From sequence record MK327933.1: DNA of 64,000 nt. The stretch is one strand, 5' to 3'. Made by a program: the position numbers and the translations under genes. This DNA comes from Escherichia phage vB_EcoM_G2285. Positions 29,111 through 49,003 of this stretch are shown here, piece after piece (position 1 is the first letter of the stretch; every line of letters begins with the position of its first letter). The notes below the pieces were generated by a model. The model did not search any database. It had not been told where the DNA came from and was given only the letters and a program-made list of their open reading frames with translations.

Positions 29111-30582
29111 GGTCCAAATACGTCTTCAAACGAATCCGCTTCTGTTTTATCAAAACGGAACCCTTTAATAATTGGAAGGAAAATACCTACAGTACCTTCA
29201 CGGCCTTTAGAATGAACCCAACCATTACATTCACAATCAGCGATACGTCCAATTAATTTACCTTCACGAGCTTCGGTCATTAATCGTTCACGGTCTAAAT
29301 CATGACGCTCGTCTAAAGGAATAAGAACCTTTACACCGTCAACTGTTTTATGAGTTGTATCTTTAAAACCTGAACCACAATCGGTTGTAATACGACGACA
29401 ACGTGATACGAGTTCGACACCACCTAATTTGTTAGGGTCTTTAGAGTGTTCATAGTATCCTACAACTTCTAAAGCGATATCAATAACTTCTTTAAATTTA
29501 ATTAGGTTCTTAGAGCGTTTGTTTTCCCAGTATGAATCACGGTTTTTAAGGATAATACCTTCAAGACCTTGGTCAACATATTTTTTATAAACCACTTTAG
29601 CTTCATCAAGATTACGAACTAACTGGTTTTCGATAGGTTCAATTCGTTTAAAGCCTTCAGCCATATTTTCAAGAGCAGCAAAACGAACATCGTATTTCTG
29701 ACCTTTAATTTTGCCATCAGAATAGACTTCATCTAAAGGAACATAGTCCCAGGCTTGAAGAACCATACCTTCCGCTTCTTTAGGAGAAATAGTCCCTTGA
29801 AGAGATTTATTTGCTAAACCATTTGAAGTGCTACGGTCTGCAACTTGCACTTCTTCGGATTCTTCATTATCACCAAATAAGAACGACAGGTCATTTCCTG
29901 AGCTCACAGCCTTTTTAATATCGAATGAATGATAAACTAATTCACCGTCGATTAAAACCCCATTAGGGTGTCTTTCACGAGCTTCTTTAGTCATTTCCAT
30001 TAGTTCATCCGCTAATAGAGTAAGACCATGATATTCGTTGCCGGCACGAGAAAAGAATTGAACACCATCATCGCGAACTTCAGCGAAACAACGAGCACCA
30101 TCTGCTTTTAATTGGGCAAATGCAGGCCATTTAATATTTTTAGTAATCAATTTCTCATCATATGCAGATGCTAACATCTGTGGTTGCAATTGAATAAGTC
30201 CAGGCCACACCTTATTCGCTATAGACACTGAAGCACCTACTTCAAGGTCGCGCATCATTACACGACGAAGGACTTCTACATCATCAGGTTTACCATCAGC
30301 GATATAACCCATGAGCTCTTTAATTGCAGCATTACCAGTGAGTTTACGAGTGGCTAATGTGAACTCAATAAAATCCAACATGGCATCTAATTCAAGAAGA
30401 CCATACGCTTGAGACCTTTCACCTGGTCCTGGCCATTTCTTAATATAATACTGGATACCACGTGCATATGTTAAACGATACACACGTTCAAGTAATTTGT
30501 TGTCCTTATTTTTCTTAAGGATTTCCTGTTTTGTTTTAGTAGAACCGATCGCAGCTATTTGGTTTAAAATATCTAAAATCAT
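29089..30582 (-). CDS. 30: ATP-dependent DNA ligase gp30
   Basis: 497 aa; adenylation lysine motif KADGAR; matches remembered T4 ligase. Confidence 0.95.
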   Translation of the reverse strand: MILDILNQIAAIGSTKTKQEILKKNKDNKLLERVYRLTYARGIQYYIKKWPGPGERSQAYGLLELDAMLDFIEFTLATRKLTGNAAIKELMGYIADGKPDDVEVLRRVMMRDLEVGASVSIANKVWPGLIQLQPQMLASAYDEKLITKNIKWPAFAQLKADGARCFAEVRDDGVQFFSRAGNEYHGLTLLADELMEMTKEARERHPNGVLIDGELVYHSFDIKKAVSSGNDLSFLFGDNEESEEVQVADRSTSNGLANKSLQGTISPKEAEGMVLQAWDYVPLDEVYSDGKIKGQKYDVRFAALENMAEGFKRIEPIENQLVRNLDEAKVVYKKYVDQGLEGIILKNRDSYWENKRSKNLIKFKEVIDIALEVVGYYEHSKDPNKLGGVELVSRCRRITTDCGSGFKDTTHKTVDGVKVLIPLDERHDLDRERLMTEAREGKLIGRIADCECNGWVHSKGREGTVGIFLPIIKGFRFDKTEADSFEDVFGPWSQTGL

Positions 30583-30848
30583 TTGATGTCCTCGATTTTG
30601 GTTACGGTTCTATTATAAGCCACTTCATCTAGAAGCGATTTCAGCGTTTTCTGATAAGTGGTAATCCATTTACCGAGACCTTCAACATAGTATTCTGAAA
30701 TGTAGATGAACCCTTGTTCAACACACTCTTTAAATATTTCTGCGTCTTTTACTGAACGAAACAATGGCCGGTCTCGAAAGAACATGTTAACGTGACCGTA
30801 GTCACGCGTTGTGTTTTTGCCATCTGTAATATCATGAACTACAAACAT
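30579..30848 (-). CDS. Hypothetical protein (30.1-like)
   Basis: 89 aa ORF overlapping the gene 30 start. Confidence 0.5.
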   Translation of the reverse strand: MFVVHDITDGKNTTRDYGHVNMFFRDRPLFRSVKDAEIFKECVEQGFIYISEYYVEGLGKWITTYQKTLKSLLDEVAYNRTVTKIEDIK

Positions 30849-30857
30849 AATTAACCC

Positions 30858-31046
30858 TTAACAATTTATAGACCAAGTCCATTTAGACGAATCTAAAGGA
30901 AAGTTTTGAATCGTCCACCACGGCTGCATATCAGTTGGTCCTGGGGTTCGCCAGGTATATGGAGTACGTGTTGTCGAGGGGCCACCAATTTGATTAGGCC
31001 ATGCACCTGGACTTGTTGCACCAGATTCTTTAAGCAAATCCGCCAA
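30858..31046 (-). CDS. Putative 62-codon Trp/Pro-rich ORF in frame with the upstream HAD-like gene across a single UGA (doubtful)
   Basis: TTG-initiated track ORF; first codon directly abuts the UGA stop of the upstream ORF in the same frame; GC-rich and compositionally atypical. Confidence 0.25.
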   Translation of the reverse strand: MADLLKESGATSPGAWPNQIGGPSTTRTPYTWRTPGPTDMQPWWTIQNFPLDSSKWTWSINC

Positions 31047-31682
31047 TCATTTTAAAAGGTCTTCACGATCTGAATCTGAATTATGCTCAGGTGGAACCAA
31101 ACGAGATTCAATATCATCCCACGTGTGTACACGTTGTGCAGTACGAGGAATGGCATCACGTTCACCACGGGCCAACCAATAAATCGGTACATTGAGAATT
31201 TCTGCCGCATGGTCACAGTGATGAGCTAAATCGTCAACGTAACAAATTACGTTATATTTTGTTTTAGCTAGTTCGAATAATTGTTCCTTTGACGAATCAT
31301 GACCACACATCATTACTTCAGAAAAGGCACCTGGGAACAAAGCATTCAAATTAAATTGTCTATTCAATCGAGCATCAATTGAATCACCTAGCGCCGTCAC
31401 GGCTACAAAATTATAGTCTTCTTTTAGTTTATTGATAACTCGAAGAGCATCTGAATAAGGCGCTAAGTAACGAATAAAATCAGAGCGATTATATTTTTCT
31501 ATTAATTGTTTACCAAGGTTATCGTCGGTATTGAATAGTTTACCAGGAGAAATAAATTTTTCATCCTGAATCATTTTTAAAATATGTTCTAATGGAAGAT
31601 TATATTTTTGGGCAAAATAAGGAAGTCCAGATTGCCAGCTTAAACATACACCATCAATATCAGTCAAAATAGTAGGCTTCAT
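31047..31682 (-). CDS. HAD-superfamily hydrolase-like protein (30.2 position; possible nucleotidase)
   Basis: 211 aa; N-terminal DIDGV motif and later YVDDL acidic motif. Confidence 0.6.
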   Translation of the reverse strand: MKPTILTDIDGVCLSWQSGLPYFAQKYNLPLEHILKMIQDEKFISPGKLFNTDDNLGKQLIEKYNRSDFIRYLAPYSDALRVINKLKEDYNFVAVTALGDSIDARLNRQFNLNALFPGAFSEVMMCGHDSSKEQLFELAKTKYNVICYVDDLAHHCDHAAEILNVPIYWLARGERDAIPRTAQRVHTWDDIESRLVPPEHNSDSDREDLLK

Positions 31683-32146
31683 AAAGAGTCTCTTAATAGG
31701 TTTAACACATCAATAAATTCAGCTTCGGTTAGTATTGTATCATCTTTTGTTAGACCACTGGCCATGCTGTGCTTCAAAATTTTTCCTTTAGAGGCTTGTA
31801 AGGCATCACGAAACCCCTTGTTTTGGATCGCGGCTTCAAAATACGCATTTGTGTATAATTCTTTCCACGCTTCGGAGTATCTTGAAAACGGAACTCCTAA
31901 CCAGAAGAGAGTCCCACGGTCCTGAGCTCTTGCATAAGACCTTCCAGCTTGCTGTGCGGCCAGTCCTGACAGCCCAAATATACGTCTTTGTTGTTCAACA
32001 TTTTTCACCTTACATCCTTGGAGAAATCCTTCAAGACCTCCGAATTGAATACCATCCATAACAAAAGGCCATTGAGCAAAGTTACTTAATGCACACGACG
32101 GCCACTTGAAATTACTTCTTATTTCTAATTCAGACATCTTTAACAC
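31679..32146 (-). CDS. NADAR/YbiA-like domain protein (30.3 position)
   Basis: 155 aa; LSNFAQWPFVMDG...EGFLQGCK resembles the E. coli YbiA N-terminal signature FSNFAAWPIKVDG...EHYFQAQK. Confidence 0.55.
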   Translation of the reverse strand: MLKMSELEIRSNFKWPSCALSNFAQWPFVMDGIQFGGLEGFLQGCKVKNVEQQRRIFGLSGLAAQQAGRSYARAQDRGTLFWLGVPFSRYSEAWKELYTNAYFEAAIQNKGFRDALQASKGKILKHSMASGLTKDDTILTEAEFIDVLNLLRDSL

Positions 32147-32348
32147 TTATAATTTCAACATCAGCCCAATGACCGTATCCAGGTATACGGTCTTCGATAG
32201 ATAAATTTCTGACATTTTTAGGCATTTTAATTGACGTAACGTATGGTTCTAAACGGTTTTCCGCGTAATATGGAAAAACGTCGGTTACACGATAAGTAAC
32301 TTCAATCATTTCCGTACCAAACAATTTCTGGATTAATTTATTCAACAT
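32130..32348 (-). CDS. Hypothetical protein
   Basis: 72 aa ORF; start overlaps the end of the upstream -1 frame. Confidence 0.45.
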   Translation of the reverse strand: MLNKLIQKLFGTEMIEVTYRVTDVFPYYAENRLEPYVTSIKMPKNVRNLSIEDRIPGYGHWADVEIISVKDV

Positions 32349-32351
32349 GTT

Positions 32352-32576
32352 TCAACCCTTTAATAGGAGATAACTCTTTACCCATACGTATGTCAGAAGT
32401 CCCATCAACCCATTGAACAGCATACGCTTCATTGACAATTCCAGCGGCGGTTTTAAATTCATATACTGCTCAATTTCACATACTGAACCATTTTTATGTT
32501 TCCATAAGCAAATCGTATCAATAGAACCTGCGATACCGTTAGAAACATATTTGCGTTCGAAGTTGGTGTAGTTCAT
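32352..32576 (-). CDS. Hypothetical protein; possible -1 frameshift at the U_UUA_AAA heptamer 32451-32457
   Basis: 74 aa zero-frame ORF with a hydrophobic tail; the -1 frame opens at the heptamer and runs 37 codons into a TAATG overlap with the next gene. Confidence 0.4.
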   Translation of the reverse strand: MNYTNFERKYVSNGIAGSIDTICLWKHKNGSVCEIEQYMNLKPPLELSMKRMLFNGLMGLLTYVWVKSYLLLKG

Positions 32577-32675
32577 TTTATTCTCCAGTTGTTTTATTGA
32601 TTAGGTGGTACAAGTCTATAGTAACACATCCTACAGGAGAGTAAACATCTTTTTTAAACTTTTTCTGCCCTAAAC

Positions 32676-32701
32676 GCACAAAAGGGAGACCGAAGTCTCC
32701 C
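32676..32701 (-). terminator. Intrinsic terminator (GGGAGAC-ttcg-GTCTCCC plus T-run)
   Basis: Perfect hairpin and T-run on minus strand just past the 59-aa ORF stop. Confidence 0.65.
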
Positions 32702-32706
32702 TAAAA

Positions 32707-32886
32707 TTATGCAACAACCTTTCCAAAACGAGAAGCATCATCTCGAAGAACTGCACGTGCTCTGCGCATGATCTTCTCAACTGTTTGATTAATACGATAG
32801 TTCGACCCACGCTTGTATCCAGCGCGTTTAGAGGTACCATCAACTTTCTTTTCAACTGCTTTCTTTGCTTTAGCTTGTTTTGCCAT
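32707..32886 (-). CDS. Small Lys/Arg-rich protein (59 aa)
   Basis: Hand-translated MAKQAKAKKAVEKKVDGTSKRAGYKRG...; below track cutoff; Shine-Dalgarno AAAGAG, ends at the terminator. Confidence 0.45.
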   Translation of the reverse strand: MAKQAKAKKAVEKKVDGTSKRAGYKRGSNYRINQTVEKIMRRARAVLRDDASRFGKVVA

Positions 32887-39189: not shown

Positions 39190-39677
39190 GTTTGAATAAT
39201 CTCAATGATTTCGTCTCGGGATAATCCATTGATAAGAACGGTTTTCAAACCATCACACTGGATTTTGTACGATTCAAACAATACACACAACTCTTCTGCT
39301 GTATGATACGGACTTGAAATTCCGAGGCGGTTGAATTTGTCGGTAAGAGGGTCGCAAATAATGTAGAATTTTATACCTGCGATATGTACGTTTGGTTGAC
39401 TAATATTAATGAACACATTAGCGTCATATTTAGTCAAATTGTTTTGAAGAAATTCTACCATGGCATTAACTGCTTCCGGCATAGCTTCGCGTTTCTCTTC
39501 AGCGTATCGGGTGGAATACTCTTTTTGTTTTACTTTCTTTTTAAGATTTTTGGCCAGTGTAACACGTAGGTCAGTAAGATAACCAACTGCACGTCCTTTC
39601 TTAAAGACCCGGATTCCGTCAGTTGTGTCTCCAAAAGCGGTTACGACCATATCGTTAGTAATCAATTGCATATTCAT
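39177..39677 (-). CDS. alc: Alc-like protein (start placed at internal MNMQL)
   Basis: Position between the spanin pair and rnlA as in T4; internal start gives about 166 aa. Confidence 0.5.
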   Translation of the reverse strand: MNMQLITNDMVVTAFGDTTDGIRVFKKGRAVGYLTDLRVTLAKNLKKKVKQKEYSTRYAEEKREAMPEAVNAMVEFLQNNLTKYDANVFINISQPNVHIAGIKFYIICDPLTDKFNRLGISSPYHTAEELCVLFESYKIQCDGLKTVLINGLSRDEIIEIIQTCLK

Positions 39678-46276: not shown

Positions 46277-46588
46277 TTATACCGCCATTTTAGCTTTGAT
46301 AGTTGGATGAGATTCGTAATTTTTAAGAACGAAATCAGAATGTGTCATCGTTCCAGTAACCCAGTCCATTTGGATTTTTGTAGGCCAATTCTCAAAATTA
46401 CTAGGCCAATTAATTTCAAGAGAACATAACTCTTTAGGTTCACGACGAAGAACTTCTTTGCATTGTTCTACATGATTGCTGTAGATATGCGTATTGCCGC
46501 CTGAGAACACTAAATCACCTGGGATAAGGTTACACATCTTCGCTACAATATGAACTAACGTAGCATATGATGCAATATTAAATGGAAG
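46277..46588 (-). CDS. td: Thymidylate synthase Td, exon 2
   Basis: Starts LPFNIASYATLVHIVAKM...; track ORF start ATG is the intron-terminal AUG. Confidence 0.85.
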   Translation of the reverse strand, partial: LPFNIASYATLVHIVAKMCNLIPGDLVFSGGNTHIYSNHVEQCKEVLRREPKELCSLEINWPSNFENWPTKIQMDWVTGTMTHSDFVLKNYESHPTIKAKMAV

Positions 46589-47604
46589 CATTATGTTCAG
46601 ATAAGGTCGTTAATCTTACCCCGGAATTATATCCAGCTGCATGTCACCATGCAGATCAGACTATATCTCCAACTTGTTAAAGCAAGTTGTCTATCGTTTC
46701 GAGTCACTTGACCCTACTCCCCAAAGGGATAGTCGTTAGGCATTTATGTAGAACCAATTCCATTTATCAGATTTTACACGATAAGTAACTAATCCAGACG
46801 AAATTTTAAAATGTCTAGCTGCATCTGCTGCACAATCAAAAATAACCCCATCACATGAAATCTTTTTAATATTACTAGGCTTTTTACCTTTCATCTTTTC
46901 TGATATTTTAGATTTAGTTATGTCTGAATGCTTATGATTAAAGAATGAATTATTTTCACCTGAACGATTTCTGCATTTACTACAAGTATAAGCAGAAGTT
47001 TGTATGCGAACACCGCACTTACAAAACTTATGGGTTTCTGGATTCCAACGCCCGTTTTTACTTCCGGGTTTACTGTAAAGAGCTTTCCGACCATCAGGTC
47101 CAAGTTTAAGCATCTTAGCTTTAACAGTTTCAGAACGTTTCTTAATAATTTCTTCTTTTAATGGATGCGTAGAACATGTATCACCAAACGTTGCATCAGC
47201 AATATTGTATCCATTAATTTTAGAATTAAGCTCTTTAATCCAAAAATTTTCTCGTTCAATAATCAAATCTTTCTCATATGGAATTTCTTCCAAAATAGAA
47301 CATTCAAACACATTACCATGTTTGTTAAAAGACCTCTGAAGCTTTATAGAAGAATGGCATCCTTTTTCTAAATCTTTAAAATGCCTCTTCCATCTCTTTT
47401 CAAAATCTTTAGCACTTCCTACATATACTTTATTGTTTAAAGTATTTTTAATCTGATAAATTCCGCTTTTCATAAATACCTCTTTAAATATAGAAGTATT
47501 TATTAAAGGGCAGTCCTACAATTTAGCACGGGATTGTCTACTAGAGAGGTTCCCCGTTTAGATAGATTACAAGTATAAGTCACCTTATACTCAGGCCTCA
47601 ATTA
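46589..47604 (-). mobile_element. Group I self-splicing intron in td, carrying I-TevI (1016 nt)
   Basis: Intron begins UAAUUGAGGCCUGAGUAUAAGG and ends ...CAUAAUG as in the T4 td intron; exons join in frame (GGU|CUU). Confidence 0.9.
46736..47473 (-). CDS. I-TevI GIY-YIG homing endonuclease
   Basis: 245 aa; GIY-YIG start (GIYQIKNTLNNKVYVGS); matches remembered T4 I-TevI. Confidence 0.95.
   Translation of the reverse strand: MKSGIYQIKNTLNNKVYVGSAKDFEKRWKRHFKDLEKGCHSSIKLQRSFNKHGNVFECSILEEIPYEKDLIIERENFWIKELNSKINGYNIADATFGDTCSTHPLKEEIIKKRSETVKAKMLKLGPDGRKALYSKPGSKNGRWNPETHKFCKCGVRIQTSAYTCSKCRNRSGENNSFFNHKHSDITKSKISEKMKGKKPSNIKKISCDGVIFDCAADAARHFKISSGLVTYRVKSDKWNWFYINA

Positions 47605-49003
<1,399 letters not shown>

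Follow-up and report, generated by a model that had tools for sequence, protein, structure and literature searches.

A premature opal codon in the conserved early gene 30.2 of Escherichia phage vB_EcoM_G2285 is probably a strain-private nonsense allele

The DNA considered here is a stretch of 64,000 nucleotides from Escherichia phage vB_EcoM_G2285 (record MK327933.1), referred to below as the window. On its minus strand, one reading frame extends from 31682 to 30858 and comprises 825 nt, or 275 codon positions, with a single internal stop. The first part of the frame is a HAD-like ORF of 211 codons (31682..31050), in which the sequence T-D-I-D-G-V occupies residues 7-12. The stop codon which closes it is directly followed by TTG (31046..31044), and this codon opens a further stretch of 62 codons. 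The layout of a HAD-like ORF, a single UGA and 62 codons in the same frame had been described in a first-pass annotation of the sequence and is borne out, with the frame lying on the minus strand. The features of the locus are the following.

31679..32146, minus strand: gene 30.3, the upstream neighbour (PF08010 Phage_30_3, E 5.1e-69)
31047..31682, minus strand: truncated gene 30.2, with ATG at 31682 and 211 codons plus TGA
31047..31049, minus strand: opal codon TGA, which is CGA (Arg212) in relatives
30858..31046, minus strand: 3' end of gene 30.2 left orphaned by the stop, with 62 codons and TAA (30860..30858)
30579..30848, minus strand: gene 30.1 (DUF3045), the downstream neighbour (PF11243, E 7.6e-27)

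The TGA of gene 30.3 overlaps the ATG of gene 30.2 (ATGA), and a 497-aa ORF, annotated as DNA ligase in relatives, also lies downstream of 30.2. The same gene order, 30.3 - 30.2 - 30.1/30 (DNA ligase), is found in T4, RB69, JK45 and UGJNEcP4. Megablast matched 148-149 Mosigvirus (RB69-like) records at 95-99% identity, the best of them at 98.1%, and the best relatives are about 98% identical to the window across 24 kb. These sequence comparisons identify the window as part of a Mosigvirus, a T-even phage of the RB69 type, and the frame as its conserved early gene 30.2. JK45 and F2 are placed in Tequatrovirus in the NCBI taxonomy, yet they are about 97-98% identical to the Mosigvirus window here. 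Membership in the gp30.2 family (PHROG 420) is indicated by the 211 residues of the window, which are 98% identical to the protein P0001 (E 4e-137); the intact protein P0001 matches phrog_420 with E 4e-78. The annotation of PhAPEC2 describes the gene as similar to T4 gp30.2, and both in PhAPEC2 and in PTE-Eco05 exactly the same span is annotated as a single 825-bp CDS. The locus is therefore not a new feature, as 30.2 is already a known T-even gene.

With a GC content of 0.455, the extension behind the stop exceeds the overall value of the window (0.380) and ranks among the top 3.8% of 189-nt windows. Its 62 residues include 9 T, 8 P, 6 S and 6 W. It had been regarded as the only ORF in about 190 bp; it is the longest one there, but not the sole one, as ORFs of 42 and 49 aa overlap it in other frames. 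In the window, at least 62 open codons follow in frame after 4 of the 53 open stretches of at least 150 codons, and in the other three cases what is involved is a separate gene that has an ATG of its own, or a spurious antisense frame. The pattern is thus not extreme by sequence statistics alone, and it is the comparison with relatives which gives it meaning.

In relatives, the orphaned 62 codons encode residues 213-274 of the 30.2 product. The affected base lies at window position 31049, where the coding strand has T and 13 of 13 aligned relatives have C. All 12 Mosigvirus relatives that were fetched have an uninterrupted 30.2 frame of 271, 272, 274 or 278 aa in which codon 212 is CGA; the 12 from which this codon was extracted include HX01 and ATK47, whose 30.2 was left unannotated. 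JK45 also has C at the mutated base. Between the window and PhAPEC2, gene 30.2 differs at 15 positions, 14 of them synonymous third-position changes and the remaining one TGA in place of CGA (Arg212), and the PhAPEC2 protein is identical to that of the window apart from codon 212. The distribution of the two alleles was examined with a 55-nt megablast query centred on the site and designed in such a way that every 28-nt seed must span it. With C in the centre, the query matched 148 phage records, 111 of which were identical over all 55 nt, and with T in the centre it matched none. Exact-match searches with the 31-nt sequence containing TGA found nothing in IMG/VR, JGI metagenome contigs or GTDB genomes, and the exact 211-aa product was absent from the records searched. 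Aligned with 13 relatives over 1,977 nt, the window carries seven private substitutions, the opal codon being one of them, which indicates that a private branch exists.

Since no record carries T and 148 carry C, the stop is interpreted as a single C-to-T nonsense change (CGA to TGA, Arg212 to opal) private, as far as these comparisons reach, to phage vB_EcoM_G2285. The transition would have converted codon 212 from an arginine codon into a stop and removed the last 63 residues of gp30.2. An opal nonsense mutation in a once-longer gene had been the first of the options listed in the first-pass annotation, and the intact 30.2 of 271-278 aa with CGA in relatives argues for it. Related genomes do not share the end of the 211-codon ORF with unrelated sequence behind it; they contain a longer, intact gene. 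The stop would then be an ordinary strain-private nonsense allele of a known gene and not a recoding signal, and we consider with good confidence that it is a real mutation.

The change could also be a sequencing or consensus error, in which case the T would be a miscall and the phage would have an intact gene with CGA. Such an error is considered unlikely. The change concerns a single base found in no other record, and this base comes after an AAAA run. In addition, the DNA of T-even phages contains modified cytosines, which can disturb some base-callers. Against these points, a screen of 68 annotated JK45 CDSs against the window revealed an in-frame stop in 30.2 and in none of the other 67, so that the sequence is clean apart from this codon. 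The lesion is a substitution rather than an error in homopolymer length, the other private substitutions occur at a normal rate (7 in 1,977 nt), and a second private lesion, a deletion joining genes 30.7 and 30.5, lies nearby. These substitutions and the deletion show that real private changes exist on this lineage.

Selection on the gene was gauged by dN/dS, calculated as pairwise sums among the relatives. The core (codons 1-195) has a ratio of 0.056 and codons 196-211 have one of 0.23; the tail has 0.18 when phages of the same tail type are compared and 0.39 with the alternative ending of HX01 and AV109 included. All length differences and indels in 30.2 among relatives are multiples of three. 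From the indels in threes and the tail ratio of 0.18 compared with 0.056 in the core, it follows that the tail is, by this measure of selection, coding in the family and less strongly constrained by purifying selection than the core. Set against PTE-Eco05 and PhAPEC2, the tail of the window is free of frameshifts and nonsynonymous differences and has 0-1 synonymous ones, a comparison of low power. The number of private changes in the 189-nt tail is zero, where only about 0.7 would be expected, so the count is uninformative on the age of the stop. The description of the extension as a degenerating pseudogene tail is correct only in so far as the tail is now orphaned; it has no further lesions and no decay is visible yet, within the low power of that test.

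The end of the tail is itself variable among the Mosigvirus relatives. In HX01 and AV109, the last ~25 codons of 30.2 form an alternative ending, PHWRYTNVGEHPVPPYWAVPQGYGTTKG instead of PWWTIQNFPLDSSKWTWSINC, which suggests a modular exchange of the tail end. The tail alone matched no Pfam or PHROG family. The possibility that the Mosigvirus tail is related by frameshift to the GIEYL...RPT tail of the T4 type was considered and rejected, as the motif is not encoded in the other frames of the tail DNA.

The part of the protein upstream of the stop contains the complete set of HAD motifs: the DxD nucleophile of motif I, the Thr/Ser of motif II, the Lys of motif III and the acidic pair of motif IV. 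Across 95 homologs, D8, D10 and K132 never vary, and conservation is at least 90% for T96, D150 and D151. All these catalytic positions precede the stop, and the conserved core is complete in the 211 residues. AlphaFold2 was run on the intact 274-aa protein with the 95-sequence alignment. In the resulting model, pLDDT values stay above 90 throughout the core, to about residue 195, a helix spans residues 203-221 (block pLDDT 79-91) and is halved by the stop at 212, and residues 222-274 form a low-confidence coil (pLDDT 38-54). The W/P/T-rich tail is probably disordered, as far as the model indicates. The predicted structure has a Rossmann-like HAD fold with a cap domain, and the catalytic residues are located at strand ends, as HAD proteins would have them.

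Comparison of the predicted core with the PDB by Foldseek gave 89 matches at E <= 0.001, and all 50 of those listed are HAD-superfamily entries. Among them, the 5'(3')-deoxyribonucleotidases and C1-capped HAD phosphatases (PDB 2jao, 2i7d, 1mh9, 3bwv, 3i76) match with E 1e-7 to 1e-5 and TM 0.6-0.69 normalised to the target (0.6-0.65 for the deoxyribonucleotidases), and the DxD nucleophile motif is present. Identity to these five entries is only 13-19%, and none of them has a W/P-rich tail. At the sequence level, the assignment of the core to a HAD subfamily failed and the fold search alone succeeded: HAD models scored below their curated thresholds (HAD_2 16.4 bits against a cut-off of 23.8; TIGR01428 13.5 against 125.4), and a PDB profile search gave no significant match. 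Literature searches on the function of gp30.2 or 30.2 returned nothing relevant.

The consequence of the nonsense change for the protein can be outlined from these predictions. Ribosomes would mostly stop at codon 212 and release a protein of 211 residues, which would keep the entire HAD-type catalytic core and lose half of the C-terminal helix together with the W/P-rich tail. By analogy with the many natural homologs which are tail-less, the truncated product is probably still an active HAD-type phosphatase. The halving of helix 203-221 could destabilise the truncated enzyme. The function lost with the tail is probably partner docking; the TWRTPG motif in it is common to T4.

Homologs of 30.2 differ widely in the region removed by the stop. 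The lengths of 98 homologs range from 176 to 347 aa, and many of them are tail-less (196-212 aa). Conservation stops near residue 195 (W188-x-D-I), and the tails beyond this point are hypervariable in length and sequence. Short forms include the 212-aa protein of UGJNEcP4 and a 199-aa form present on 12 contigs; these are compact, with the stop 1 nt before 30.1. As the homologs vary in length, conservation ends at about residue 195 and short compact forms exist, the tail is, on this comparative evidence, dispensable in evolution. One further candidate for a short 30.2, P0003 (220 aa, ENA metagenome, 39 member sequences), was rejected. Its C-terminus, RSEEHTSELQSQN, resembles a translated Illumina adapter, which we take to be AGATCGGAAGAGCACACGTCTGAACTCCAGTCAC, and the sequence probably reflects adapter contamination at a contig end rather than a true truncation.

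Three groups of homologs are of use in placing the allele. The first group consists of the Mosigvirus 30.2 genes, such as those of PhAPEC2 (AHV82903.1, 274 aa) and RB69 (NP_861904.1, 271 aa), which occupy the same position between 30.3 and 30.1 at about 98% nucleotide identity. Their products have 271-278 aa and CGA at the codon in question, whereas the window product has 211 aa and TGA. The second is T4 30.2 (NP_049815.1, 278 aa), a long form with an orthologous HAD-like core and the same synteny, in which the gene is intact. The T4 tail is likewise aromatic and proline-rich and shares the TWRTPG motif with Mosigvirus; it is otherwise unrelated and ends with G-I-E-Y-L-Y-N-R-P-T, which is absent in Mosigvirus. 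A tail end of the form G-[IV]-E-Y-[LW]-x-N-[RQ]-P-T is common to T4-type, Klebsiella and Citrobacter phages, and it does not occur in Mosigvirus. As sequence patterns, the G-[IV]-E-Y and TWRTPG motifs look like short linear motifs within hypervariable tails.

The third group includes the short homologs (UGJNEcP4, 212 aa; Acinetobacter phage Acj9 30.2, 211 aa; the 199-aa forms), in which the core ends at about residue 195 and no long tail is present. Their length is similar to that of the 211-aa window product. They differ from it in being compact, with the stop 1 nt before 30.1, whereas the window retains an untranslated remnant of 189 nt. Such a remnant, read from the gene layout, marks a fresh lesion and not an evolved short form.

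The intact frame behind the UGA leads to the question of whether the stop could be decoded. In functional readthrough or suppression, isoforms of 211 and 274 aa would be produced, with the host tRNA-Trp or a phage tRNA-Arg mutated to UCA as the decoder. A phage tRNA-Arg changed from UCU to UCA elsewhere in the genome would restore Arg212, and a matched opal mutation and opal suppressor in a natural T-even isolate would, if true, be an unusual case. In T4, opal suppressors were derived from tRNA-Arg; a literature search for a paper on the T4 tRNA-Arg opal suppressor found none. The closest relative has a tRNA-Arg(UCU), which is one base from an opal suppressor, and the tail frame of the window is still intact. 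UGA is also leaky in E. coli, with reporter readthrough of ~2% at 37 °C and 4% at 25 °C (PMC10570021).

The stop itself, however, is not conserved (0 of 148 relatives), and the 251 nt that surround and follow the UGA fold like shuffled sequences (z -0.26). The context is UGA-U, and a U after UGA provides the most efficient, i.e., the tightest, termination context in E. coli. No tRNA gene was found in the 64-kb window. The tRNA cluster of relatives is located about 55 kb away, beyond the window; in JK45 it consists of Arg-UCU and Met-CAU only, about 55 kb from 30.2 and outside the window span. An example of programmed UGA readthrough is the coat/A1 protein of phage Q-beta, in which one frame is likewise broken by a single UGA with coding sequence behind it. 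Programmed stops of this kind are conserved, and readthrough is the only route by which their extensions are expressed. The stop in 30.2, by contrast, is missing from all 148 relatives, and what lies behind it is the normal gene end. Programmed readthrough was rejected on the grounds of the unconserved stop and the lack of downstream RNA structure. The earlier suggestion of stop-codon readthrough or suppressor-dependent expression finds no support either, given a private stop, no stimulatory RNA structure and no tRNA in the window, and we regard functional readthrough or suppression as highly improbable. That the UGA is decoded at a meaningful rate, giving a tail-less HAD enzyme with a minor full-length isoform, is just as hard to credit. 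A few per cent of ribosomes may read through the private stop via the near-cognate tRNA-Trp, as an incidental and not a designed leak. By analogy with the reporter values, a small amount of R212W full-length protein is plausible.

Alternatively, termination could be followed by reinitiation at the adjacent UUG (31046..31044), in which case the tail would be made as a separate 62-residue peptide. Here, the stop and the possible start are adjacent (UGAUUG), and such adjacency can permit coupling in bacteria. No recognisable Shine-Dalgarno sequence precedes the UUG, however, and an overlapping AUG in another frame (A-AUG-A) would compete with it and opens an ORF of only 6 codons. In relatives, CGA-TTG lies within the gene, so the UUG was not selected as a start, and the tail alone is predicted to be disordered; reinitiation is thus very improbable. 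Finally, an unrelated open frame lying by coincidence behind the true gene end, the last option raised for the extension, is in practice excluded, for although 62 or more open codons come next in frame after about 6-8% of the window's long open stretches, the 62 codons of the extension are 98% identical to the annotated 30.2 C-terminus of relatives.

A private nonsense change in 30.2 may also influence the genes behind it. The ATG of 30.1 is located 9 nt past the ancestral 30.2 stop, and its Shine-Dalgarno sequence, AAGGG, overlaps that stop. The two genes touch or overlap at eight other T-even loci, where the distance from the 30.2 stop to the 30.1 start is -1 to +1 nt. With the premature stop, the untranslated gap before 30.1 grows from the 9 nt of Mosigvirus to 198 nt. 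The ligase start overlaps the 30.1 stop. A promoter and terminator scan found no more sites than in shuffled sequences and no minus-strand terminator in the tail. The tail mRNA, with 44 C and 42 G, is not C-rich over G and therefore offers no obvious Rho-loading site. The wider gap may modestly reduce the coupled expression of 30.1 and the ligase. Because 30.1 has its own Shine-Dalgarno sequence, the ligase start overlaps the 30.1 stop, the tail is not C-rich and no terminator was detected, the polarity effect predicted from these signals is probably mild, if there is any.

The second private lesion is located 1.4 kb upstream of 30.2, also on the minus strand. It is a deletion (window 32341-32576, junction 32459-32461) which fuses codons 1-39 of 30.7 with codons 26-65 of 30.5, the two parts being out of frame, and removes 30.6. 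Its size is 1,026 bp in comparison with JK45 and ~675 bp in comparison with PTE-Eco05, with a microhomology of 3 nt. It leaves a chimeric ORF of 74 aa (32352..32576), and no phage record spans the junction. As this deletion is also private, the private changes occur in a dispensable early-gene block.

For annotation, the 211-aa and 62-codon ORFs are to be treated as one gene 30.2 interrupted by a premature opal codon; neither a pair of genes nor a case of recoding should be entered. The isolate can be seen as a natural experiment, being viable without the 63-residue W/P-rich tail of gp30.2 and also without 30.5-30.7. This agrees with the comparative evidence that the tail and the early-gene block are dispensable under at least some conditions. 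The 30.2 allele opens no new mechanism or question.

Other local differences were noted in the course of the comparison. At about 32577-32710, gene 30.8 is missing between 30.9 and 30.7; the same is the case in PTE-Eco05, and PhAPEC2 and JK45 have 30.8. Judging by single-piece matches, AV115 and AV109 also appear to be without 30.8. The td gene (thymidylate synthase; 46280-48153, minus strand) is divided into two exons, 48153..47605 and 46588..46280, which are parted by about 1,016 bp lacking in the uninterrupted td of JK45. This insert is presumably a group I intron as in T4. JK45 in turn has a segD-type homing endonuclease and an 82-aa hypothetical gene (437-1096 and 39217-39465) with no counterpart in the window, and the 88-aa JK45 gene beside segD has just 30% identity to the window. 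Such gene differences between JK45 and the window are ordinary mobile-gene mosaicism.
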